Of a DNA stretch of 64,000 nucleotides, positions 258 to 46,625 are shown piece after piece. The stretch's first letter is position 1. Every line of letters begins with the position of its first letter. The translations under genes were made by a program, and so were the position numbers. The stretch is from Shigella phage JK36, in the sequence record MK962754.1. One strand, given 5' to 3'. The notes beneath the pieces were generated by a model. It was not told the DNA's origin. It ran no database searches and saw only the letters and a list, made by a program, of their open reading frames with translations.

Positions 258-587
258 TTATACTCTAGGCTTTTGAGCTTGTTTGGTATTGGATTCCCAT
301 GCGGCTTTGGTAATTTTGTTAGCGGCATAACCAAAGGCATTAGATAGAACACCTTTAGAGTTGAATACATCCAATCCAATAAGTACACCGGCTGTGTTAA
401 ATTTAGGAGCAAAGTACGCATTAGTTTTAGAAAGAACTTTTTTCAATTCAGGGTCTTGAACCAAGCCATCAAAAACGCCTTTACTATTTACTTTATATGT
501 TACTTTGGGATTTTTACCTTCTTCGATAGCAGCTTTCTGTTCCGCAGATAATGTAACTTCAGTGATAAACTCCTGATATGTTTTCAT
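258..587 (-). CDS. internal-protein-like capsid-targeted protein (109 aa)
   Basis: N-terminus MKTYQEFITE matches T4 capsid targeting sequence; ATG with AGGAA RBS; early-region position. Confidence 0.6.
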   Translation of the reverse strand: MKTYQEFITEVTLSAEQKAAIEEGKNPKVTYKVNSKGVFDGLVQDPELKKVLSKTNAYFAPKFNTAGVLIGLDVFNSKGVLSNAFGYAANKITKAAWESNTKQAQKPRV

Positions 588-612
588 TTTGTTCCTATTG
601 TTTTAATTTATG

Positions 613-927
613 TTATTCTTTAGGGAAGTTTTTAGAGTATGCATCATAAAGTTTATTACCAATACGACGGAAGACTTTAGCTGCAAAACGGTTTTCAGGG
701 TTTTTAATCATGATTTGCATCATGTAAGTTCCTGCATCCGAAAGAGCTTCTTCATAGTACCCATTAATTTCTTTAAGAGTCCTACGTTTACCACCAGGAC
801 CGTCAACAGTAATTTTCCATTTACCTGTAGAAGTGCGGCTCGGTGGCTCAACTTGTTCAATCCAAATATAACCACCTTCAACGCGTTGGTTGGCGGATTC
901 TGCAATAAATTCTTTATACGTTTTCAT
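613..927 (-). CDS. internal-protein-like capsid-targeted protein (104 aa)
   Basis: N-terminus MKTYKEFIAE (CTS-like); ATG with AAGGAAAC RBS. Confidence 0.6.
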   Translation of the reverse strand: MKTYKEFIAESANQRVEGGYIWIEQVEPPSRTSTGKWKITVDGPGGKRRTLKEINGYYEEALSDAGTYMMQIMIKNPENRFAAKVFRRIGNKLYDAYSKNFPKE

Positions 928-939
928 TTTTGTTTCCTT

Positions 940-990
940 GTTTGTTTTGATAGAGTAATTATACCATATTAATACTTAAGCGTAAACAAT
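940..990 (-). promoter_or_regulatory. T4-type early promoter / PeSL-like cassette
   Basis: Minus strand reads GTTTAC (-35, plus 982-987) then ~17 nt then TATAAT, then conserved CTATCAAAACAAA leader; upstream of ORF 613..927. Confidence 0.5.
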
Positions 991-1251
991 TTAAGCTTTA
1001 CCGCCAGAAATAATTCCGAAGTTGTTAAAATCATATCCAATATCGTCAACATCTACTTTAGGACTTGCTACAACATAAGCAATTTCACTACGTTTTGCAT
1101 AGGTGTTGATTTCTTTACCATCGCCACCTAAGAAAGAATACCCATTACGTTTTAATGAGCCAAAGTCTTCCGCATCACCAATGAAAGCTTTAACTTTAAA
1201 TTTAGGACCTTTGGCATCTGCTTCAATGATAAATTCTTGATACATTTTCAT
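991..1251 (-). CDS. internal-protein-like capsid-targeted protein (86 aa)
   Basis: N-terminus MKMYQEFIIE (CTS-like); ATG with AAGGA RBS; immediately downstream of denV. Confidence 0.55.
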   Translation of the reverse strand: MKMYQEFIIEADAKGPKFKVKAFIGDAEDFGSLKRNGYSFLGGDGKEINTYAKRSEIAYVVASPKVDVDDIGYDFNNFGIISGGKA

Positions 1252-1257
1252 TTTTCC

Positions 1258-1671
1258 TTAGTAAATTGATTTACCATAGTATTTGTACCAAGTCGGACGT
1301 TGAGCAATTTTTTCATCTAAGCGTGCTTGACTTATCGCAATGGACGCTTCGGACGGGACATAATTATTACGAAATTCGGCAGGGATGTCGGAAATATCCT
1401 GGACAGTCGTGTCCTTGATTTTGAACCCACGTTTCAAGCATTCAGCGATTAGCTCGATTTGACGTAAACGTAAAAATTCGAGTTTGTCGTAAAAGAATGT
1501 TACGTGACCTGTGCCTAAGATAAATGTTGGAGAGATTTTAAAATCCTTTACACGTTTACCGTTTTGAACATGTTTACGGACTGCACCAAATACGCGTGGT
1601 AATTCACGATACTCAGCCATAAGATGTTGGTCGGACAGTTCAGAAACAAGTGTTAAATTGATACGAGTCAT
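1258..1671 (-). CDS. denV: endonuclease V (pyrimidine-dimer DNA glycosylase/AP lyase)
   Basis: Protein from [12 protein letters not shown]... is near-identical in my recollection to T4 DenV (138 aa); start moved to internal ATG matching T4. Confidence 0.9.
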
Positions 1672-1683
1672 AATTTCCTCCAA

Positions 1684-1730
1684 GTAGTTGATGAATGTAT
1701 AGTATCAAAGTCCTTGGAGGAAGTAAACAC
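1684..1730 (-). promoter_or_regulatory. T4-type early promoter / PeSL-like cassette
   Basis: Minus strand GTTTAC (plus 1723-1728) + spacer + TACTATA-like -10, same cassette as other copies; upstream of denV. Confidence 0.5.
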
Positions 1731-2011
1731 TATTTTTCTGAAGCGCCTGAAATATATTTTTCAAGACGTTGTTTCATTAGCGAGCCGTTCTTAGCGATTT
1801 CTTCCGGTTTATCGCACATACGTAACAAGGCTTCAAGCTTAGCGATATCGCTGGTACGTTCAAATTTGCGAGTATCTATCTTACTAGCAAGTTCAGAAAT
1901 ACGTGCTAGTAGACTTTCGGCTTCAACCAAAGCTGCACCTAGCTTAGTTGCAAATGTGTCAGTAGCTTCGTTAAGAATAGATTCTGATAAAAATTCACTA
2001 TATGTTTTCAT
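1730..2011 (-). CDS. internal-protein-like capsid-targeted protein (ipII/ipIII position, 93 aa)
   Basis: Internal start gives [10 protein letters not shown] (CTS-like) with GGAAAG RBS; lies between e and denV where T4 has ipII/ipIII. Confidence 0.6.
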
Positions 2012-2496: not shown

Positions 2497-2530
2497 AATA
2501 CCTCCCACGTTTATAGGAGGTATTTATTAC

Positions 2531-2989
2531 TTATAGGAGGGTAGTGAGCACCTTATATAATGATTTGCCCATTACATATTCCCATTGAGAAGGTTTAATT
2601 AAAGCGAATGCATCAAATTCAGGAATCTGTCGTCCGTCTGGGAATGTATGATAGGAATTACAAACACTGTTTCTGAATTGCTCGTGCTCTACAGGGATGG
2701 TATATTGGAACAGATGAATATTCTTATTGTCTGAGTAATGATGTTCGCCTAGGTCTTTCAGGAAGGCAGGGTCATATTGTGTAAACCCAGTTTCTTCTTC
2801 GCATTCACGAATAGCGGCTTCAATAGGAGATTCGCCAGGTTCGACACGGCCTTTAGGAATATCCCAGCGATGAACTAATGCACCTTTAGGACGAGAACCA
2901 GTTACACGGCCCATGAATAATTCTTTATCTTCGGTAAGGAAAATAATACCGGCTGATAGTTCTTTCACTTTATTTTTCTTACTCATCAT
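2531..2989 (-). CDS. nudE: Nudix hydrolase
   Basis: Nudix box GRVEPGESPIEAAIRECEEETG; position right after e as in T4. Confidence 0.85.
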   Translation of the reverse strand: MMSKKNKVKELSAGIIFLTEDKELFMGRVTGSRPKGALVHRWDIPKGRVEPGESPIEAAIRECEEETGFTQYDPAFLKDLGEHHYSDNKNIHLFQYTIPVEHEQFRNSVCNSYHTFPDGRQIPEFDAFALIKPSQWEYVMGKSLYKVLTTLL

Positions 2990-6520: not shown

Positions 6521-6529
6521 ATTGTTTCC

Positions 6530-6802
6530 TTAGCAAGTGTGAGAAGATGCGACCCAACCACCAGTTTCGAGGCTCAGGTTGTAGTCGTATTGGTAAACGT
6601 CAGCCCATTCAGCATAGCCGTTTTTTGTACAACGTTCAAGATCGGCTTTAAGATGTCCGGGTGAATGATAGGTTCCACCCATACCATAAGCTGGGTACAA
6701 GTTGAATGTTGTGTTTTGTTTATCAGCAATTTCTTTGGCAGCCTCAATAGCTGCATAGATTTTTGCTACAGCTTCAGCCAGTTCGGTTTGTTCTTTAGAC
6801 AT
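6530..6802 (-). CDS. small protein, 'WVxSSxxC' paralog 2 (90 aa)
   Basis: C-terminus ...GGWVASSHTC; stop overlaps RBS of next gene. Confidence 0.5.
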   Translation of the reverse strand: MSKEQTELAEAVAKIYAAIEAAKEIADKQNTTFNLYPAYGMGGTYHSPGHLKADLERCTKNGYAEWADVYQYDYNLSLETGGWVASSHTC

Positions 6803-6811
6803 AATGATTCC

Positions 6812-7117
6812 TTAGCACAACGCAGAAGACGAAACCCAAGCACCTTCAGTAATAACGTATCCATTACCTTCACGCTTAACATCGCCGCCATTATTTTCAA
6901 TTTCATCTTTCATCCACTGGGATACGATTTCACCCTTAGGATAATAAGTACGACCGCTACCATAATCACCTACAGAAAATGATACGGCATATTGGTCTGC
7001 GATCTTTGTTGCTTCTTCTTCGATACGTTCAGCTTGATTCAGAAGTTTATAAATTGCATCTGAAGCGGATTTGGCATCATTAAACTCTGGTACTTTAATT
7101 TCAATAATCTTACTCAT
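6812..7117 (-). CDS. small protein, 'WVxSSxxC' paralog 1 (101 aa)
   Basis: C-terminus ...GAWVSSSALC; translationally coupled (ATGA overlap) to upstream membrane-protein gene. Confidence 0.5.
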   Translation of the reverse strand: MSKIIEIKVPEFNDAKSASDAIYKLLNQAERIEEEATKIADQYAVSFSVGDYGSGRTYYPKGEIVSQWMKDEIENNGGDVKREGNGYVITEGAWVSSSALC

Positions 7118-10256: not shown

Positions 10257-10721
10257 TTATTTAATTTGTTTAGCAGACCAGATACGGTCTTTAATAAGTT
10301 TTTGGATATCTTCAACATACTCAAGGCTATGAGCGTGAGGATTATCTTTGAAGCTATGTGCTCGTGCCAGTTTCTGGCCTTCTGTTTTGATTACTAAAAG
10401 CTCTTTAAGAATTGCTTCATACTTAGAAATAATTCCTTTGGCGATATTTTTTTCTTGAGCTGCTTTAGGGTCTGTTTTTGGCGCAGGTGCTTTACCTGTA
10501 GCTTTCTGGAACAATTCACCTGATGCAGCTAGGCTTTTAAAAACTCGGCTAACAGTATTAGCATTAGTAAAACCTTCGGCTTTAAAATCTCTAATAAAAC
10601 GGAAACGTTCTTCATCAGAGGCGTCTTTGTAAGAATATTTACCTGCTTGAATTGCTGCAATCGCAGCGGCTTTTACATCTGAACTAGATTGTTCAGTCAA
10701 AAATTCAGCGTATGATTTCAT
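10257..10721 (-). CDS. internal-protein-like capsid-targeted protein (154 aa)
   Basis: N-terminus MKSYAEFLTE resembles CTS; followed by own terminator. Confidence 0.5.
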   Translation of the reverse strand: MKSYAEFLTEQSSSDVKAAAIAAIQAGKYSYKDASDEERFRFIRDFKAEGFTNANTVSRVFKSLAASGELFQKATGKAPAPKTDPKAAQEKNIAKGIISKYEAILKELLVIKTEGQKLARAHSFKDNPHAHSLEYVEDIQKLIKDRIWSAKQIK

Positions 10722-11105: not shown

Positions 11106-11450
11106 TTATTTTGGCATATCATCAATTTGTTCTCTACGTCTACGCCATAGATTAATCGCTTCATTGGCACATTCTGCGTTTGGTATATGACGGCAATAAT
11201 ATAATGATTCGCGTTTCTGGAACCGATGTTGTAATGGAATTTCGTTTAAAAGGTCTTTACGGTCAAAGTATTCAAAACTAGTTAACCCGGAACGGTTTTT
11301 AAGAAACTTCCAATGTCCGAATTCATTTTGAAAATAGACATAATCAGCATGCTGATACAGCGAATTAATTAACCTATCGGAAATAACTGTTTCACGTTCG
11401 TTAAAATAAAACGTTAAGTCATGAACTACCAGATAAATATTGCCTTTCAT
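11106..11450 (-). CDS. hypothetical protein (114 aa)
   Basis: ATG at 11450 with GAGGA RBS, immediately downstream of tRNA cluster. Confidence 0.4.
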   Translation of the reverse strand: MKGNIYLVVHDLTFYFNERETVISDRLINSLYQHADYVYFQNEFGHWKFLKNRSGLTSFEYFDRKDLLNEIPLQHRFQKRESLYYCRHIPNAECANEAINLWRRRREQIDDMPK

Positions 11451-11468
11451 ATTTTCCTCACTTATAAT

Positions 11469-11544
11469 TGGTCGAGACAGTAGGGATCGAACCTACGACC
11501 TAGGACTTAGAAGGTCCTTGCTCTTCCTTCTGAGCTATGCCTCG
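11469..11544 (-). tRNA. tRNA-Arg (anticodon TCT)
   Basis: Hand-folded cloverleaf on minus strand: acceptor CGAGGCA/TGTCTCG, T-loop GGTTCGATCC, anticodon loop CTTCTAA, CCA encoded. Confidence 0.8.
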
Positions 11545-11548
11545 TATT

Positions 11549-11623
11549 TGGCGGACGTGATAGGATTCGAACCTATAACCAATCGCTTAACAGGCGATCG
11601 CTCTGCCATTGAGCTACACATCC
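11549..11623 (-). tRNA. tRNA-Asn (anticodon GTT)
   Basis: Acceptor GGATGTG/CACGTCC, T-loop GGTTCGAATCC, anticodon loop CTGTTAA, CCA encoded; not in T4's set. Confidence 0.75.
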
Positions 11624-11627
11624 AAAT

Positions 11628-11714
11628 TGGTGGGGAGTGATGGAGTCGAACCACCCGAGTCGCAATGACAATGGATTTACAGTCCACACCGCTACCTCTA
11701 CGGGATAACTCCCC
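11628..11714 (-). tRNA. tRNA-Tyr (anticodon GTA), long variable arm
   Basis: Acceptor GGGGAGT/ACTCCCC, anticodon loop CTGTAAA, long variable arm, CCA encoded; not in T4's set. Confidence 0.75.
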
Positions 11715-11726
11715 TAATTCATAATT

Positions 11727-11801
11727 TGGTGGCCCTGGGTGGAATTGAACCACCATCTGGCGATTATGAGTCGCTTGCTTGAACCTTCCAGCTACAGGGC
11801 C
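11727..11801 (-). tRNA. tRNA with anticodon CAT (Met, or Ile2 if lysidinylated)
   Basis: Acceptor GGCCCTG/CAGGGCC, T-arm GGTGGTTCAATTCCACC, anticodon loop CTCATAA. Confidence 0.7.
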
Positions 11802-11802
11802 T

Positions 11803-11878
11803 TGGTGCTGATTGACGGAATCGAACCGCCGACCTTCTCATTACAAGTGAGTTGCTCTACCTACTGAGCTAAATCAGC
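11803..11878 (-). tRNA. tRNA-Thr (anticodon TGT)
   Basis: Acceptor GCTGATT/AATCAGC, T-loop GGTTCGATTCC, anticodon loop CTTGTAA. Confidence 0.8.
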
Positions 11879-11883
11879 AAAAC

Positions 11884-11973
11884 TGGCGGAGGCGATAGGA
11901 TTTGAACCTATGAGTCGCCGGAGCGACTGCCGGTTTTCAAGACCGGTGCATTAAACCACTCTGCCACGCCTCC
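11884..11973 (-). tRNA. tRNA-Ser (anticodon TGA), long variable arm
   Basis: Acceptor GGAGGCG/CGCCTCC, anticodon loop CTTGAAA, long variable arm, CCA encoded. Confidence 0.8.
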
Positions 11974-11975
11974 AG

Positions 11976-12049
11976 TCTCCATACAAGGATTTGAACCTTG
12001 GACCTCCTGATCCCAAATCAGGCGCTCTACCAAACTGAGCTACACGGAG
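11976..12049 (-). tRNA. tRNA-Pro (anticodon TGG), CCA not encoded
   Basis: Acceptor CTCCGTG/TATGGAG, anticodon loop TTTGGGA; 3' end followed by CTG not CCA. Confidence 0.75.
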
Positions 12050-12059
12050 TAAATTAAAT

Positions 12060-12133
<74 letters not shown>

Positions 12134-12138
12134 AAATT

Positions 12139-12225
12139 TGGTGCGAGAAGTGGGACTCGAACCCACAAGGAAATCATTCCGCAGCATTTTAAGTGCTGTG
12201 CCTTTACCAATTTGGCCATTCTCGC
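12139..12225 (-). tRNA. tRNA-Leu (anticodon TAA), long variable arm
   Basis: Acceptor GCGAGAA/TTCTCGC, anticodon loop CTTAAAA, long variable arm. Confidence 0.8.
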
Positions 12226-12226
12226 G

Positions 12227-12299
12227 CTGGGAATAAAGGACTCGAACCTTTGCATCCTGGAATCAAAATCCAGTGCCTTACCAACTTGGCTAATTCCCA
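12227..12299 (-). tRNA. tRNA-Gln (anticodon TTG), CCA not encoded; 1 nt from tRNA-Leu
   Basis: Acceptor TGGGAAT/ATTCCCA, T-arm AAGGTTCGAGTCCTTT, anticodon loop TTTTGAT. Confidence 0.75.
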
Positions 12300-12396: not shown

Positions 12397-12690
12397 TTAC
12401 CATTTATGATAATACATATTTACGATGCAGTCAAGACCCAAAGGATTCTTGAAAATATCATATTCAAGAGGACCTTTTTCCGTTTCAATAAAGAAATCAA
12501 AATTTACTGTATTAAATTTACGGTCTTCCTTCACTAATTTAACTTGAGAAGATGAACGGTCAATGTAAACCTTTTCAACTTCAAAACATGTTAAAATGCC
12601 ATAATCATCAATCAAGGCTTTAGCCGCGTCTTGATCATATTTATATCCATTTTCAATAGACGATACTTTAGCATAAAGAATCATTATCAA
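12397..12690 (-). CDS. hypothetical protein (97 aa)
   Basis: ORF in minus-strand early operon; no recognisable motif. Confidence 0.4.
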   Translation of the reverse strand: MIMILYAKVSSIENGYKYDQDAAKALIDDYGILTCFEVEKVYIDRSSSQVKLVKEDRKFNTVNFDFFIETEKGPLEYDIFKNPLGLDCIVNMYYHKW

Positions 12691-13085
12691 CCTTCATCAA
12701 CAATAGTATGAGTATGGGCATTTACAATTTGCCACCAATCAAAGCGATTAGAACCATACATCGGGTTGTTCTCATTTTCTTTGATAATGTCACGGAGTTC
12801 ATCTTCAGTAGCGGCTTTCGCGATTAAATCAGCATATCCACCGCGAGGATAATAATTATCACCTGCAAAAAGTAAAAAGTTCGGTTTAATATTATTGAAC
12901 TCTTCAAGAGTAATAACTTTTCCTGTCGGTTGAACAATCTCTACATATTTATATCCTAATTTTTGAGCAGCATCTACTGCTTCAAGCAAAGTATCATGAG
13001 CCCATCCAATTTGACAACCTGGCTTTTCAGATGGATTAGCCTGATAATCCGCGTACACTTTATACATTCTATTCACCTTTTGCAA
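12687..13085 (-). CDS. hypothetical protein (about 126-132 aa)
   Basis: ORF overlapping neighbours by 4 nt (coupled); start may be at internal Met (MYKVYADYQ). Confidence 0.4.
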   Translation of the reverse strand: MQKVNRMYKVYADYQANPSEKPGCQIGWAHDTLLEAVDAAQKLGYKYVEIVQPTGKVITLEEFNNIKPNFLLFAGDNYYPRGGYADLIAKAATEDELRDIIKENENNPMYGSNRFDWWQIVNAHTHTIVDEG

Positions 13086-13324: not shown

Positions 13325-13612
13325 TTACAGAAGAGTTTTTGCAATAATTTTAAGCTGAGCTACAGAAATGTGCTTAGCTTTAAACAGTGCAGTCTCTTCA
13401 GCCGGAGAGATAACAATAGTAGCGCCGTCTTTCTTAGCAGACCATCCATCCCCTAAGTAAACAGTACCTTTTACTTCTTCGCCGTCAACCAGACTAATCA
13501 TTGGTTTACCCTCACGTCCTTTATTTGCTTTAATAACTTCGGAAGTAAGGGTTGCTTCGGTCAGAGTAGAAACATTAGCAACAGGTGATATAAATTCTTT
13601 ATAGGTTTTCAT
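13325..13612 (-). CDS. ipI: internal protein I-like capsid-targeted protein (95 aa)
   Basis: MKTYKEFISPVANVSTLTEA... CTS-like; 95 aa and position adjacent to 57B as T4 ipI; symbol by position only. Confidence 0.55.
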   Translation of the reverse strand: MKTYKEFISPVANVSTLTEATLTSEVIKANKGREGKPMISLVDGEEVKGTVYLGDGWSAKKDGATIVISPAEETALFKAKHISVAQLKIIAKTLL

Positions 13613-13629: not shown

Positions 13630-13682
13630 GTTTATTTGATAGGATGATAGTAACACACCATCATCCTTATGTAAACTGTTTT
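13630..13682 (-). promoter_or_regulatory. early promoter / PeSL-like cassette
   Basis: GATAGGATGATAGTAACACACCATCATCC inverted repeat; minus GTTTAC at plus 13671-13676; upstream of ipI-like gene. Confidence 0.55.
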
Positions 13683-40447: not shown

Positions 40448-42019
40448 ATGAAATTTAATATCTTAAGTTTGTTTGCTCCATGGGCAAAAATGGACGAACG
40501 TGATTACAAAGACCAAGAAAAAGAAAATTTAGAATCTATCACAGCACCAAAATTGGACGACGGCGCTAAAGAATACGAAGTATCTGAAAATGAAGCACAG
40601 CAAACATATAATGCCATGTTTCAGAGAATGTTCGGTAGTCAAGAACCAGGGCTCAAATCAACCCGTGAATTAATCGATACGTATCGAAATTTGATGACGA
40701 ACTATGAAGTGGATAATGCAGTCTCTGAAATAGTTTCCGATGCTATCGTGTATGAAGATGATACAGAAGTCGTTTCTATAAATTTAGACAACACAAAATT
40801 TAGTCCAAATATCAAATCAATGATGTTGGATGAATTTAACGAAGTGTTGAATCATTTATCTTTCCAACGTAAAGGTTCAGATCATTTTAGACGTTGGTAT
40901 GTGGATTCTCGAATTTTCTTCCATAAAATTATTGACCCTAAACGCCCTAAAGAAGGTATTAAAGAGCTTCGTCGTTTAGACCCACGTCAAGTTCAATATG
41001 TCCGTGAAGTTATTACAACCACTGAAGCTGGTGTTAAAATAGTCAAGGGTTATAAAGAATATTTCATTTATGACACATCACACGAATCTTATGCTTGTGA
41101 TGGTCGCATATATGAAGCGGGCACAAAAATAAAAATCCCTAAAGCCGCGATTGTTTACGCCCATTCTGGTTTAGTTGATTGTTGTGGTAAAAATATCATC
41201 GGTTATTTGCATCGGGCTATTAAGCCAGCGAACCAATTAAAACTTCTTGAAGATGCTGTCGTAATTTATCGTATTACTCGTGCTCCCGATCGTCGTGTAT
41301 GGTACGTTGATACAGGTAATATGCCTTCAAGAAAAGCAGCAGAACATATGCAACATGTTATGAATACGATGAAAAACCGTATTGCATATGATGCTACTAC
41401 AGGCAAGATTAAAAACCAACAGCATATTATGTCGATGACCGAAGATTATTGGTTACAACGACGTGATGGTAAAGCAGTAACAGAAGTTGATACATTACCA
41501 GGTGCAGATAATACCGGAAATATGGAAGATGTACGTTGGTTCCGTAATGCGCTTTATATGGCTTTACGTATTCCTATTACCCGTATTCCAAGTGACCAAG
41601 GTGGTATACAGTTTGATGCTGGTACTTCTATTACACGAGATGAATTGTCATTTGGTAAATTTATTCGTGAGCTGCAACATAAATTTGAAGAGATATTCCT
41701 AGACCCGCTTAAAACTAATTTAATTCTTAAAGGAATTATTACAGAAGATGAGTGGAATGATGAAATAAATAATATTAAGATAAAATTTCATCGGGATAGT
41801 TATTTCTCGGAATTAAAGGATGCTGAGATTCTGGAGCGTCGCATTAATATGCTTCAGATGGCCGAACCATTTATTGGTAAATATATTTCTCACAGAACAG
41901 CTATGAAAGATATTCTTCAGATGTCTGACGAGGAAATTGAACAAGAGGCTAAGCAAATTGAAGAAGAGTCGAAAGAGGCTCGTTTCCAAGACCCCGACCA
42001 AGAACAAGAGGATTTTTAA
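40448..42019 (+). CDS. 20: gp20 portal vertex protein
   Basis: 523 aa; synteny. Confidence 0.95.
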
Positions 42020-42258
42020 TGGACGATTTAATTCAAGCTATTAAATCAAACGACCTCGTTGCTACTCGAAAGTTTTTTGAAAGTGCAATGGCAGAAAAAA
42101 CGGTTCGTTTGATTGAAGCACGCAAAGCAGAAATCGCTTCTCAATTTTTGATTGAAGGCGAAGAACCTGAAGAAGAAGAAAAGAAAGCTAAAGCTTCGGA
42201 AGACGACGCTGATGAAGGCGATGACGACGAAGACGAAGATGATGAGGACGATGAATAA
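42019..42258 (+). CDS. 67: gp67 prohead core protein
   Basis: 79 aa with acidic C-terminus; position after 20. Confidence 0.85.
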
Positions 42259-42683
42259 TGTATCTTATCCCTGAATCTTATGAATTGGTACTCGAAAATG
42301 TCGAAGCACTTATTCCTGAAGCACAGGGCCGAATCGATGCATTGTCTTCTGCTCTCGATATTGACGATATAAATACTATTATCGAGAACATGCTTGAAAC
42401 TGAAACGGATTTAGCTGTTGCAATGGCTTCCATTATTAATGAAGAACAGTTAAATGAGTTTATCGTTAAACATGTTTCTTCTCGTGGTGAAGTCACCCGC
42501 ACTAAAGACCGTAAAACTCGTGAACGTAACGCGTTCCAAACCACTGGTCTTTCTAAAGCAAAACGTAGACAAATCGCTCGTAAGGTCGTTAAAGCTAAAA
42601 AAGCTAACCCTTCAGGCCAAGTTAAAGGCTTGCGTAAGCGTAAAAAGGCTCTTAAACGTCGTAAAGCATTAGGATTAAGCTAA
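42258..42683 (+). CDS. 68: gp68 prohead core protein
   Basis: 141 aa; basic C-terminus; synteny. Confidence 0.85.
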
Positions 42684-43324
42684 TGAATAAACCCGAGTTA
42701 CTTATTGAAACTTGGGGTCAACCCGGTGAGATTATTGATGGCGTTCCAATGTTGGAATCTCATGATGGAAAAGATTCTGGCTTAAAACCAGGGCTTTATA
42801 TAGAAGGTATTTTTCTTCAGGCAGAGGTTGTTAACCGAAATAAACGTTTATATCCTAAACGCGTTTTGGAAAAAGCAGTAAGTGACTATATTAAAGAACA
42901 AGTCGCAACCAAACAAGCCCTTGGAGAATTAAACCATCCACCTCGTGCAAATGTTGACCCTATGCAAGCCGCTATCATTATCGAAGATATGTGGTGGAAA
43001 GGAAACGATGTATATGGACGTGCTAGAATTATTGAAGGCGACCATGGTCCCGGCGATAAATTAGCTGCTAATATACGAGCTGGTTGGATTCCAGGTGTTT
43101 CCTCTCGTGGTCTTGGTTCTTTAACCGACACCAATAAAGGGTACCGTATCGTGAACGAAGGATTTAAATTAACCGTCGGCGTAGATGCCGTATGGGGACC
43201 TTCTGCTCCAGATGCTTGGGTTACTCCTAAACAAATATCAGAATCAGAAAATTCGGTGGAAATCACCAAAAACAGTGCTGACGAAGCATTTAAAGCTCTC
43301 GCAGAGAGTTTAAAAGCATTATAA
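42683..43324 (+). CDS. 21: gp21 prohead core scaffold protease
   Basis: 213 aa; synteny. Confidence 0.9.
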   Translation: MNKPELLIETWGQPGEIIDGVPMLESHDGKDSGLKPGLYIEGIFLQAEVVNRNKRLYPKRVLEKAVSDYIKEQVATKQALGELNHPPRANVDPMQAAIIIEDMWWKGNDVYGRARIIEGDHGPGDKLAANIRAGWIPGVSSRGLGSLTDTNKGYRIVNEGFKLTVGVDAVWGPSAPDAWVTPKQISESENSVEITKNSADEAFKALAESLKAL

Positions 43325-43327
43325 ATA
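43320..43327 (+). promoter_or_regulatory. T4 late promoter TATAAATA (gene 22)
   Basis: Exact TATAAATA overlapping gene 21 stop. Confidence 0.6.
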
Positions 43328-43357
43328 ATAATGTAATCTAAACCACAGGACACTAAA

Positions 43358-44170
43358 ATGATCAAAGAACAACTTTTGAAAGAAGCTCAGAACATCGAGA
43401 CTTCAGTTGCTCTTAATAGTGTTTTCGAATCAGTAGAACTGTCTCCGGACGTTAAAGCTAATTTCAGCACTGTATTCGAAGCCACCGTTAAGCAGGAAGC
43501 AGTCAAACTTGCTGAATCTCATATCAAAGCCATCGCCGAAAAGGCCGAAGAAGAAGTTGAAAAGGCTAAAGAAGATGCTGAAGAGAAAGCTGATAAAAAA
43601 TTGGCTGAACAAGCTTCTAAATTCCTAGACCATCTTGCAAAAGAATGGCTCGCAGAAAACCAAATCGCAGTTGATAAAGGCATTAAAGCTGATTTGTTCG
43701 AATCCATGCTTGGTGGTCTGAAAGAACTGTTTGTTGAACATAACGTTGTTGTTCCAGAAGAATCTGTAGATGTTGTAGCAGAAATGGAAGAAGAGCTGGC
43801 CGAACATAAAGAAGAAACCGCTCGTTTGTTCGAAGAAGTTACCAAACGTGATGCATATATCAATTACGTTCAGCGTGAAACCGCTATTAATGAAAGCGTA
43901 AAAGACCTGACTGAATCTCAGAAAGAAAAAGTTATTGGCCTGGTTGAAGGTATGGATTATTCTGACGCATTTGGTACTAAGTTAACTGCTATTGTAGAAA
44001 TGGTTAAAGGTTCTACTAAAGAAGAAGCCGCTATTACCGAAAGTATAAATACAGTTGACAATGACGCTGCCGGTCTTAATTTTGTTGCCGAAGCAGTTGA
44101 CACTACCACAACTCAGGTAGAACAGAATTCTAATGTAAGTTTATATGCGAAAGTCGCATCTCGTTTCTAA
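43358..44170 (+). CDS. 22: gp22 prohead core scaffold protein
   Basis: 270 aa acidic coiled-coil; synteny. Confidence 0.9.
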   Translation: MIKEQLLKEAQNIETSVALNSVFESVELSPDVKANFSTVFEATVKQEAVKLAESHIKAIAEKAEEEVEKAKEDAEEKADKKLAEQASKFLDHLAKEWLAENQIAVDKGIKADLFESMLGGLKELFVEHNVVVPEESVDVVAEMEEELAEHKEETARLFEEVTKRDAYINYVQRETAINESVKDLTESQKEKVIGLVEGMDYSDAFGTKLTAIVEMVKGSTKEEAAITESINTVDNDAAGLNFVAEAVDTTTTQVEQNSNVSLYAKVASRF

Positions 44171-44577
44171 TTTAAAGGTTAACACAAATGACTACTATCA
44201 AAACTAAAGCTCAGCTCGTAGACAAATGGAAAGAACTGCTGGAAGGTGAAGGCCTGCCGGAAATCGCTAATAGCAAGCAGGCTATTATCGCTAAAATCTT
44301 CGAAAACCAGGAAAAAGATTTCGAAGTATCCCCTGAATATAAAGACGAGAAAATCGCTCAGGCATTTGGTTCTTTCTTGACCGAAGCTGAAATTGGTGGT
44401 GACCATGGTTATAATGCTCAGAACATCGCAGCGGGTCAAACCTCTGGTGCAGTAACCCAAATTGGGCCGGCAGTTATGGGTATGGTTCGTCGTGCTATTC
44501 CTAATCTGATCGCTTTTGATATTTGTGGTGTTCAGCCTATGAACAGCCCGACCGGTCAGGTATTTGCTCTCCGTGCA

Positions 44578-45422
44578 GTATATGGTAAAGACCCTATCGC
44601 TGCTGGCGCTAAAGAAGCTTTCCATCCGATGTATGCTCCAGATGCGATGTTCTCTGGTCAGGGTGCTGCTAAGAAATTCCCAGCTCTGGCTGCTGACACT
44701 ACTACTGTTGTAGGTGATATCTATACTCACTTCTTCCAAGAAACTGGTACTGTATATCTGCAAGCTTCTGCTGTCGTAACACTTGATTCTGGTGCAACTG
44801 ATGCAGCTAAATTAGATGCAGAAGTTAAGAAACAAATGGAAGCTGGTGCACTGGTAGAAATCGCTGAAGGTATGGCTACTTCTATCGCTGAACTCCAGGA
44901 AGGTTTCAACGGTTCTACCGATAACCCATGGAATGAAATGGGCTTCCGTATCGATAAACAAGTTATCGAAGCTAAATCTCGCCAGCTGAAAGCTGCTTAC
45001 TCTATCGAATTAGCACAAGACCTCCGTGCAGTACACGGTATGGATGCTGATGCTGAATTGAGCGGTATTCTGGCTACAGAAATTATGCTAGAAATCAACC
45101 GTGAAGTTGTTGATTGGATTAACTACTCTGCACAGGTTGGTAAATCTGGTATGACCCTGACTCCGGGTTCTAAAGCTGGTGTATTTGACTTCCAGGACCC
45201 GATTGATATCCGTGGTGCTCGTTGGGCCGGTGAAAGCTTTAAATCTCTGTTGTTCCAGATTCATAAAGAAGCAGTTGAAATTGCTCGTCAAACCGGTCGC
45301 GGTGAAGGTAACTTCATTATCGCTTCCCGTAACGTAGTTAACGTACTGGCTTCAGTTGATACTGGTATTTCTTACGCTGCACAGGGTCTGGCTTCTGGTT
45401 TTAATACCGACACTACTAAGTC
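44578..45422 (+). repeat. tandem direct repeat, copy 1 (845 bp)
   Basis: Identical to 45423..46267 except C at 45262 (G at 46107). Confidence 0.95.
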
Positions 45423-46267
45423 GTATATGGTAAAGACCCTATCGCTGCTGGCGCTAAAGAAGCTTTCCATCCGATGTATGCTCCAGATGCGATGTTCTCT
45501 GGTCAGGGTGCTGCTAAGAAATTCCCAGCTCTGGCTGCTGACACTACTACTGTTGTAGGTGATATCTATACTCACTTCTTCCAAGAAACTGGTACTGTAT
45601 ATCTGCAAGCTTCTGCTGTCGTAACACTTGATTCTGGTGCAACTGATGCAGCTAAATTAGATGCAGAAGTTAAGAAACAAATGGAAGCTGGTGCACTGGT
45701 AGAAATCGCTGAAGGTATGGCTACTTCTATCGCTGAACTCCAGGAAGGTTTCAACGGTTCTACCGATAACCCATGGAATGAAATGGGCTTCCGTATCGAT
45801 AAACAAGTTATCGAAGCTAAATCTCGCCAGCTGAAAGCTGCTTACTCTATCGAATTAGCACAAGACCTCCGTGCAGTACACGGTATGGATGCTGATGCTG
45901 AATTGAGCGGTATTCTGGCTACAGAAATTATGCTAGAAATCAACCGTGAAGTTGTTGATTGGATTAACTACTCTGCACAGGTTGGTAAATCTGGTATGAC
46001 CCTGACTCCGGGTTCTAAAGCTGGTGTATTTGACTTCCAGGACCCGATTGATATCCGTGGTGCTCGTTGGGCCGGTGAAAGCTTTAAATCTCTGTTGTTC
46101 CAGATTGATAAAGAAGCAGTTGAAATTGCTCGTCAAACCGGTCGCGGTGAAGGTAACTTCATTATCGCTTCCCGTAACGTAGTTAACGTACTGGCTTCAG
46201 TTGATACTGGTATTTCTTACGCTGCACAGGGTCTGGCTTCTGGTTTTAATACCGACACTACTAAGTC
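45423..46267 (+). repeat. tandem direct repeat, copy 2 (845 bp)
   Basis: Direct repeat of 44578..45422; carries the T4-like Asp codon (GAT) at 46107. Confidence 0.95.
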
Positions 46268-46625
46268 TGTATTTGCCGGTGTACTTGGTGGTAAATACCG
46301 CGTATACATCGACCAGTATGCTAAACAGGATTACTTCACCGTTGGTTACAAAGGCGCTAACGAAATGGATGCAGGTATTTACTATGCTCCTTACGTTGCA
46401 CTTACCCCGCTGCGTGGTTCCGATCCTAAGAACTTCCAGCCGGTAATGGGCTTTAAAACTCGTTACGGTATCGGTGTTAACCCGTTTGCTGAAAGTTCCC
46501 TGCAGGCTCCAGGTGCTCGCATCCAGTCCGGTATGCCATCTATCCTGAACAGCCTTGGTAAGAACGCTTACTTCCGCCGTGTATATGTAAAAGGCATCTA
46601 ATCTTAATTGATTAAATCTTATTTT

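Follow-up and report, generated by a model that had tools for sequence, protein, structure and literature searches.

That T-even phages carry variable sets of injected proteins, probably directed against restriction, has been known since 1994, when Repoila et al. reportedly put forward the same polymorphic view of the Ip proteins as the reading made here. That the internal proteins (IPs) are packaged, cleaved and injected to act against host defence is the textbook view (Rao & Black 2010, PMC3012670; Silas 2025, PMC12373910; HIDEN-SEQ 2025, 10.1101/2025.11.20.689424), and Petrov 2010 does not discuss them. Each of the T4 proteins Ip1, Ip2, and Ip3 inhibits a GmrSD of its own: the ipI product acts on the type IV restriction enzyme GmrSD, and IPII and IPIII (Ip2 and Ip3) inhibit GmrSD from ECOR21 and ECOR17, respectively (PMC12373910). 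A fourth protein with the capsid targeting sequence (CTS), Bas37_0260, inhibits McrBC (10.1101/2025.11.20.689424). IPI of phage RB69 is reported to protect against GmrSD (PMC6024577), and IPIII is functional without the CTS when it is expressed in the host (PMC9391042). The determinants within the T4 CTS were assigned by suppressor analysis to residues 4 and 7 for targeting and to residues 8 and 10 for processing (PMC9026906).

The window, i.e., the whole 64-kb stretch of DNA that was analysed, comes from a Mosigvirus, an RB69-type phage of the T4 family, and is 98-99% identical to RB69. Exactly six open reading frames (ORFs) in it begin with MK[TSM]Y.EF[IL], all on the minus strand. We consider it likely that these constitute the set of internal-protein (ip) genes of this RB69-type Mosigvirus, with products that are packaged, cut by gp21, injected and probably directed against restriction. 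The six genes are the following:

258..587, minus strand: IPa, a 109-aa CTS protein beginning MKTYQEFITE with the predicted cut before V; predicted mature protein of 99 aa, pI 9.7; corresponds to RB69 ORF123c
613..927, minus strand: IPb, a 104-aa CTS protein beginning MKTYKEFIAE with the predicted cut before S; Ip10-like; predicted mature pI 9.6
991..1251, minus strand: IPc, an 86-aa CTS protein beginning MKMYQEFIIE with the predicted cut before A; predicted mature protein of 76 aa, pI 6.4; corresponds to RB69 ORF125c
1730..2011, minus strand: IPd, a 93-aa CTS protein with the predicted cut before S; Ip5-like; predicted mature pI 6.3; corresponds to RB69 ORF127c
10257..10721, minus strand: IPe, a 154-aa CTS protein beginning MKSYAEFLTE with the predicted cut before Q; predicted mature pI 9.6; adjoins the tRNA cluster
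13325..13612, minus strand: IPf, the ipI ortholog of 95 aa, with a 19-residue propeptide that ends in LTE before A and a mature 76-aa IPI*

The N-termini of the six ORFs include MKTYKEFISPVANVSTLTE, and M-K-x-Y-x-E-F occupies residues 1-7 in all six proteins. A six-frame scan of the 64 kb with the peptide motif and with the looser M[KR].[YF].[ED]F returned the same six ORFs and none elsewhere in the window. In T4 (NC_000866), ipII and ipIII both begin MKTYQEFIAE and the N-terminus of ipI is MKTFKEFTSTTTPVSTITE; the scan and this comparison confirmed the claim of the initial annotation that six ORFs, all present at the coordinates given there, carry a T4-like CTS. The back-translated pattern ATGAARNNNTAYNNNGARTTY had 6 matches, compared with 0.01 +/- 0.10 expected from 100 dinucleotide-preserving shuffles. 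The initial annotation had also ascribed to each protein the start MK[TMS]Y[QKSA]EF[IL]..E with an L/I-x-E site. This holds at residues 8-10 of five proteins (ITE, IAE, IIE, LSE, and LTE, as motif presence only), whereas IPf has S-P in place of x-E at residues 9-10 and LTE at residues 17-19, as in T4 IPI. Tyr4, Phe7, and [I/L]8 are retained in the tags of the window, as is Glu10 with the exception of IPf. Among the matches listed from a degenerate DNA scan of IMG/VR, which do not amount to a census, most were single chance ones and multiple matches occurred only in contigs of ~170 kb.

A shared 5' end could also be a nucleic-acid element with no part in capsid targeting, i.e., a common signal for translation initiation, a site of RNase action or regulation, or a cassette for recombination derived from duplication. 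The first 30 nt of the six genes are indeed 57-83% identical, compared with 21-40% in the next 90 nt, and a GGAA-type ribosome binding site precedes each gene. A short conserved block of this kind is a possible site of cassette exchange, as the older T-even literature has it. However, 22 of the 102 codon pairs for identical residues differ synonymously, which argues that the peptide itself is under selection, and the regions upstream of the genes are not conserved (25-62% identity). The tag is kept in orthologs across four genera, and in experiments the T4 decapeptide brought foreign proteins (GFP, nuclease, and beta-galactosidase) into T4 heads (PMC3012670, PMC9026906). We regard an explanation at the level of the nucleic acid as scarcely credible, and targeting by the peptide is retained in what follows.

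Downstream of the tag the proteins had been described as unrelated to each other, and this was borne out by pairwise BLASTP of the mature parts, with a best E of 0.5 and no detectable similarity after codon 10. In PHROGs, IPa and IPb share the family phrog_3966. Their kinship was rejected on the E of 0.5 for the mature proteins and on the ~0.1% obtained by hhalign from tag-less family alignments, and the grouping is probably driven by the tag. Pfam and NCBIfam revealed no domain in any of the five non-IPI proteins, the sub-threshold Pfam hints of CsgH in IPb (E = 0.07) and GemA in IPe (E = 0.1) having been dismissed, and sequence searches of PDB gave the IPI match only. When T4 IPII and IPIII were compared with the six by BLASTP, only the first 10-18 residues aligned, at an E of 7e-4 or weaker, longer alignments being driven by the tag; no IPII or IPIII ortholog, and no similarity past the tag, was detected in the window.

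The predicted mature proteins are strongly basic in four of six cases (pI 9.0-9.7), and IPc and IPd are near-neutral (6.3-6.4). The near-neutral pI of these two is unlike that of the classical basic IPs and counts against the reading as an ip set. The charge of the other four would suit proteins that are packaged mainly for a structural or physical role, as basic counter-ions or as aids to DNA packing or to the assembly of core and head, and not for specific anti-defence. Each IP is present at ~360 copies in a T4 head, IP lysines touch DNA phosphates, and T4 IPIII mutants exhibit slower head assembly and a smaller burst (PMC3012670, PMC9026906). Nevertheless, T4 without all three IPs is viable (PMC9026906), each of the four CTS proteins to which a function has been assigned inhibits type IV restriction, and a basic character is lacking in IPc and IPd. 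Unrelated sequences and presence/absence variation in close relatives also better suit an arms race, and a chiefly structural role appears improbable to us. The structural and the anti-defence role are compatible and not mutually exclusive.

Pfam IPI_T4 (PF11634) matches residues 20-95 of IPf at 1.3e-50 (169.7 bits, with a cut-off of 25) and had no match in the other five proteins. The PDB entry 2JUB, 'Internal protein I', was retrieved at 5.8e-42, and the alignment of the solved IPI* to residues 20-95, i.e., from residue 20, confirms where mature IPI begins. Overall identity to T4 ipI is 88%, the 76-residue mature part containing 4 substitutions, and the gene lies between trna.4 and 57B like T4 ipI. 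IPf is an ortholog at the same locus with the same length of propeptide, 19 residues ending in [IL]-T-E, whereas its propeptide sequence (MKTYKEFIS...) is nearer to the IPII/IPIII tag than is the MKTFKEFTS of T4. The phages themselves presumably differ in that the DNA of the window phage, to judge from its identity to RB69, contains arabinosyl-hmC in place of glucosyl-hmC. Inhibition of a type IV (GmrSD) enzyme would follow for IPf purely by orthology and for the other five proteins by analogy.

At the denV/e locus, IPa was found by tblastn in 90 phage records, where it is always annotated as 'hypothetical'; 76 of these are Mosigvirus-type with >95% identity, and ~14 have 32-37% identity, e.g., AnYang gp053, a distant relative that also bears the CTS. 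IPa had no Pfam, NCBIfam, or PDB match. IPb is 72% identical over 104 aa (E 3e-46) to Ip10 of Shigella phage SP18, the record of which reads 'Ip10 (similar to Ip10 of bacteriophage Pol)'. In the RB69 reference, a 1-nt insertion frameshifts the C-terminus of its counterpart ORF124c, and the window copy is intact. The frameshifted Ip10-like gene demonstrates dispensability, which counts against our preferred explanation. RefSeq annotates both IPc and IPd as 'internal head protein', and they match PHROGs families of the same designation (phrog_2667 at 7e-21 and phrog_3499 at 2e-46, respectively). IPc, present in 217 records according to tblastn, is 78% identical to SP18gp123, which is likewise CTS-bearing. 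IPd is 47.6% identical over 84 aa (E 2e-15) to Ip5 of phage RB15 (Z35082) and ~48% identical also to PST ipV and Bas37_0261. Its ATG at 2011 and the gene e stop codon overlap (ATGA), and a longer TTG-started version (1730-2026) was set aside, the ATG at 2011 being the conserved start. IPd also contains three extra [LIV]-x-E sites that may be cuttable, an observation that counts against the preferred explanation.

The tRNA-adjoining IPe was found by tblastn in 511 phage records, is called 'hypothetical' in all among the matches listed, and belongs to phrog_2280 of 'unknown function'. The CTS is kept in its homologs, e.g., MKSYAQFLNEVVLNE, and Bas37_0244 is 75% identical to it. Structure prediction, recommended in the initial annotation, was partly informative: the AF2 model of IPe (pLDDT 75) is all-helical with two helical domains and has residues 1-10, the CTS, disordered ahead of the folded body, but no PDB fold matched it (all E >= 2), and the model of IPb from a three-sequence alignment (pLDDT 47) was too poor for a fold search. 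The IPe ortholog of Bas37 had no fitness effect on K-12 or in the one clinical-strain table consulted. This null effect counts against the preferred explanation. We tentatively propose that IPa, confined to Mosigviruses and a distant Dhakavirus relative, and IPe, found in ~500 T4-like genomes, may be unrecognised injected inhibitors with new folds and new targets, a possibility that we hold to be rather doubtful. If true, their targets might be nucleases that read the arabinosyl-hmC DNA of RB69-type phages, or non-type IV defence systems.

The machinery that packaging of CTS proteins would need is encoded in the same window, together with the gp20 portal:

42019..44170, plus strand: prohead core genes 67, 68, and 22 (GP67 at 6.5e-20; 68 by position), the presumed CTS-binding structure
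42683..43324, plus strand: gene 21 for the prohead protease (Pfam Peptidase_S77, 2.9e-107), expected to remove the CTS
43358..44170, plus strand: gene 22 for the scaffold (Pfam T4_CASP, 1.5e-89)

The T4-type CTS at the N-terminus of each product would confer affinity for the gp22/gp67/gp68 scaffolding core and thereby incorporation into the prohead, where gp21 would cut after Glu10, or after Glu19 in the IPI ortholog, to leave a small mature protein. This protein would remain in the head with the DNA, be ejected with it into the host and act before phage gene expression, and each most likely binds and blocks one modification-dependent (type IV) nuclease that attacks DNA with sugar-modified hydroxymethylcytosine. 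The ip set would differ between phages because the host nucleases differ. No virion proteomics of any Mosigvirus was found in the literature consulted, and we infer the packaging of IPa to IPe as well as their cleavage, injection, and targets.

Comparison of gene order in the window with that in T4, RB69, AnYang, SP18, and Bas37 places the six genes in the variable loci vs.8-denV-e and tRNA-57B, the same two as those of the T4 ip genes. The site of IPe is on the e.8 side of the tRNA cluster; there, Bas37 has two CTS genes and T4 has no ip gene. The following promoter regions were found near the genes:

958..986, minus strand: resembles an early sigma-70 promoter (TTTACG, 17 nt spacer, TG, TATAAT); upstream of IPb and IPa
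2500..2545, minus strand: upstream of gene e, near-consensus late promoter AATAAATA and after it an RBS-sequestering hairpin, CCTCC...GGAGG
13647..13675, minus strand: resembles an early promoter (TTTACA, 17 nt spacer, TG, TACTAT); upstream of ipI

The clearest signals are the early-type ones before IPb and ipI, the former with 10/12 matches and an extended -10, and variants of AATAAATA before e/IPd and IPe. The region at 2500..2545 presumably functions as in T4 gene e, and would then also drive the translationally coupled IPd. Upstream of IPe, a terminator-like hairpin (10788-10773) is accompanied by the near-consensus late promoter at -36. The canonical late promoter TATAAATA was found directly upstream of none of the six, which counts against the preferred explanation.

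The targets of most of these proteins, if packaged and injected, might lie outside the type IV enzymes, e.g., in BREX, Druantia, or retrons, or in host takeover, for which the co-packaged ADP-ribosyltransferase Alt is the model. When Silas et al. challenged a further five GmrSD systems with ten ip genes, no new pairs emerged (PMC12373910), hence type IV inhibition is not an established property of Ips in general. The two-domain helical model of IPe without a known fold relative, the five proteins without a Pfam or NCBIfam domain, and the varied roles of injected proteins in other phages point the same way. On the other hand, GmrSD diversity is very large, so negative tests sample little of it (PMC12373910), phages with hypermodified hmC otherwise withstand most DNA-targeting defences (PMC8594841), and each CTS-type Ip with a known target (four of four) blocks a type IV enzyme. 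We consider it unlikely that most targets are of another kind. With T4 Ip1-3 blocking GmrSDs and a fourth CTS protein blocking McrBC, the anti-defence role suggested by analogy is now stronger than initially stated. The original interpretation, i.e., proteins packaged, relieved of their CTS by gp21, injected, and acting in anti-defence, is supported and consistent with every testable element.

The class of proteins, the tag, and the arms-race logic are established, the RB69 copy of IPI has been studied before, and the find of six genes is a correct but ordinary rediscovery. It brings a small annotation gain for two families, IPa and IPe, and no new kind of biology. The useful output is a clean inventory of the six genes that bear the tag in an RB69-type phage, three of them assigned to IPI, Ip10, and Ip5, and the recognition that the RB69 ORF123c-like family and the widespread 154-aa tRNA-adjoining family bear the tag, yet are hypothetical according to databases. 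All six are candidates for inhibitor-target screens like those that assigned T4 Ip2, Ip3, and Bas37_0260. Injected proteins precede phage gene expression and so help determine the infectivity of therapeutic and model phages on a given strain.

The set had been called enlarged, which is true relative to T4 with its three IPs, but other T4-like phages have four or five in these loci (CTS genes number five in one locus of AnYang and four in Bas37), and six CTS genes are not unusual. T4 IPII and IPIII share with the window proteins an identical or near-identical 10-residue CTS ending in I-A-E and the denV-e neighbourhood, and IPII also the small size class, whereas three of the window ip genes lie across denV, on the side where T4 has none. 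With the T-even Ip set from Ip4 onward, the six share the conserved tag, unrelated bodies, and variable loci; they differ in that IPa and IPe have no Ip name among the database records examined and in the location of IPd, which is flanked by denV and e, the Ip5 of RB15-type phages and Bas37 being at the ipI locus instead. Bas37_0260, a small protein of the injected-inhibitor type with the tag MKTYQEFIAE at the ipI locus, was rejected as a homolog, having no homology to any of the six past the tag. As far as the published descriptions consulted go, the packaged anti-restriction proteins of other phages, namely DarA, DarB, and Hdf of P1 and the ejection proteins of SPN3US and phiKZ, have other targeting signals, sizes, and assembly pathways and no sequence relationship to the six, but they are likewise loaded into the head, delivered together with the DNA, and early-acting.

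The six minus-strand open reading frames IPa-IPf begin with M-K-[T/M/S]-Y-x-E-F-[I/L], as initially annotated, and were the only ones to match this capsid targeting sequence (CTS), or even the looser M[KR].[YF].[ED]F, in a six-frame scan of the 64-kb window:

258-587, minus strand: IPa, unnamed; Mosigvirus-type records, always 'hypothetical'
613-927, minus strand: IPb, Ip10-like; 72% identical to SP18 'Ip10, similar to Ip10 of bacteriophage Pol'
991-1251, minus strand: IPc, 'internal head protein' family (RefSeq and PHROGs label)
1730-2011, minus strand: IPd, Ip5-like; ~48% identical to RB15 Ip5 and Bas37_0261
10257-10721, minus strand: IPe, unnamed; 511 records, 'hypothetical' in all matches listed
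13325-13612, minus strand: IPf, ipI ortholog; Pfam IPI_T4 1.3e-50; PDB 2JUB aligned from residue 20

The back-translated tag, ATGAARNNNTAYNNNGARTTY, had 6 matches against a mean of 0.01 in dinucleotide-preserving shuffles, so the tag observation is real and far beyond chance. The N-termini of T4 ipII and ipIII read MKTYQEFIAE, and that of ipI reads MKTFKEFTSTTTPVSTITE (NC_000866). According to a review of Black's work, residues 1-10 of IPIII are enough for packaging, residues 4 and 7 are important for targeting and residues 8 and 10 for processing, and the CTS brings foreign proteins into heads (PMC9026906). Tyr4 and Phe7 are kept in all six window proteins, and [I/L]8 and Glu10 in five, IPf having the IPI pattern. 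The L/I-x-E cleavage site attributed to each protein is indeed present in all six, but its position had to be corrected for IPf, which has Ser-Pro at 9-10 and Leu-Thr-Glu at 17-19. Nucleotide identity between paralogs is 57-83% over the first 30 nt vs 21-40% over the 90 nt that follow, different codons are used in 22 of 102 pairs encoding the same residue, and the regions upstream of the genes are not conserved. The tag is conserved at the peptide level.

The mature parts are mutually unrelated as far as sequence methods reach (best BLASTP E = 0.5), in agreement with the initial annotation. PHROGs groups IPa and IPb as one family, which was rejected by hhalign of the tag-less family alignments (probability ~0.1%). 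IPa-IPe had no match in Pfam, NCBIfam or PDB sequence searches. The predicted structure of IPe is all-helical and two-domain with a disordered tag (pLDDT 75, moderate confidence), and a PDB fold search gave no relative of it; the IPb model (pLDDT 47) is unusable. A tag-bearing AnYang protein is a distant relative of IPa (32% identical), IPc is 78% identical to an SP18 protein bearing the tag, and the tag is conserved in the homologs of IPe, whose Bas37 ortholog is Bas37_0244. IPf lies in the T4-like position before 57B, and its 76-residue mature part differs from that of T4 IPI at four positions. The four denV-flanking genes are ORF123c, 124c, 125c and 127c in RB69, and RefSeq already labels ORF125c and ORF127c 'internal head protein'. 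The RB69 equivalent of IPb, ORF124c (AY303349 1113-1428), has one extra G relative to window 613-927, which shifts the frame of the last ~20 codons and shortens the annotated ORF, while the intact 104-aa protein is encoded in the window and most relatives; the extra base either dates from an old sequencing error or truly inactivates the gene in the laboratory strain.

All known partners of the tag are present in the window, which also encodes gp67, an ORF in the gp68 position and the portal besides the protease and scaffold:

42683-43324: gp21 prohead protease (Peptidase_S77 2.9e-107)
43358-44170: gp22 scaffold

In the nearby gene 23 for the major capsid protein, an 845-bp stretch stands in tandem twice (44578-45422 and 45423-46267, one mismatch) and, 845 not being a multiple of 3, splits the gene by frameshift into two ORFs that overlap, 44188-45558 and 45474-46601 (together 2414 nt vs the usual ~1566). 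The duplication junction matched two separate, non-contiguous pieces ~850 bp apart in all eight best-matching phage records listed; the duplication most likely arose as an artefact when the source record was assembled or circularised, rather than biologically.

Early-type promoter-like sites with an extended -10 lie directly upstream of IPb and of ipI, and AATAAATA, which differs from the late-promoter consensus at one base, is found 36 nt ahead of IPe, downstream of a terminator-like hairpin. AATAAATA also precedes gene e (window 2500-2545, minus strand); next comes a hairpin, CCTCC...GGAGG, that covers the ribosome binding site of the gene. T4 gene e has a similar layout: its early transcripts are untranslatable, while late transcripts begin within the hairpin. 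The start codon of IPd overlaps the gene e stop codon (ATGA), which would allow their co-expression. Canonical TATAAATA was absent upstream of all six genes; the proteins would presumably be supplied during head assembly.

RB69 and dozens of further Mosigvirus genomes match the first 3 kb of the window at 98-99% identity, and BEU50 (193 kb), the nearest complete record compared, has the same six tag-bearing ORFs and no other genome-wide. The Dhakavirus AnYang has five between e and vs.8 alone, consecutive and flanking denV (NC_055782 573-3168), among them orthologs of IPII and IPIII and a gene for a 132-aa 'hypothetical' protein, so the locus has room for a larger number of ip cassettes than it holds in the window. 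In SP18 three follow denV, and Bas37 has four over the two loci. The set is enlarged, as had been proposed, relative to T4 only; six tag-bearing genes are not unusual. Between IPe and ipI stands a block of ten tRNAs (Arg, Asn, Tyr, Met, Thr, Ser, Pro, Gly, Leu, Gln; 11469-12299), unaligned to the otherwise 98% identical BEU50 and shared by certain Mosigviruses (p000y, ST0) at 95-98% identity and by Tequatroviruses, ime09 among them, at ~92-93%; by these alignments it is a mosaic segment. A chimeric 94-aa protein from a metagenomic contig (P0009) matches a trna.3-like ORF (window 12687-13085) in its N-terminal part and the IPe C-terminus in its last ~30 residues, which points to a deletion, in some wild phage, that joined the two loci and took out the tRNAs between them.

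Most likely, the CTS would load the six proteins into the prohead core, gp21 would take off the tag, and the mature proteins would stay in the head with the DNA, to be co-injected and to neutralise specific modification-dependent nucleases immediately. Loading is supported, and the cleavage motif identified, by the sequences analysed here together with T4 experiments; processing, virion presence, injection and targets are, for five of the six, presumed. This interpretation, already offered by the initial annotation, is the accepted one and the finding is known, internal-protein sets of T-even phages having been described in 1994 (reviewed in PMC3012670); the sole new element is two tag-bearing families, IPa and IPe, unlabelled in public annotation.

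Data on Bas37 (KarlGJung, MZ501089) bear on related genes. Insertions in Bas37_0261 (11364-11621, 48% identical to IPd) had a log2 fold change of -2.09 (q = 0), and those in neighbouring Bas37_0262 one of -1.56, in an excerpt of the HIDEN-SEQ table that apparently compares K-12 vs CFT073; these values may reflect a host-specific role of Ip5-type proteins or a polar effect. Adjoining the IPe ortholog, Bas37_0243 (6529-7092, 187 aa, tag MKTYAEFLTE) resembles nothing in the window outside the tag; HIDEN-SEQ transposon data rate it 'Essential' (1/48 TA sites hit), which is unexpected for an internal protein. Tag-bearing Bas37_0260 blocks McrBC (2025 preprint); sequence comparison found it unrelated to IPa-IPf. 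T4 Ip1, Ip2 and Ip3 inhibit one GmrSD enzyme each, all three distinct; ten more ip genes yielded no additional inhibitor-GmrSD pairs (Silas et al., PMC12373910). IPIII is required on ECOR17 and is active without its tag when made by the host (Srikant et al. 2022, PMC9391042), and RB69 IPI is reported to prevent GmrSD restriction (Thomas et al., PMC6024577).
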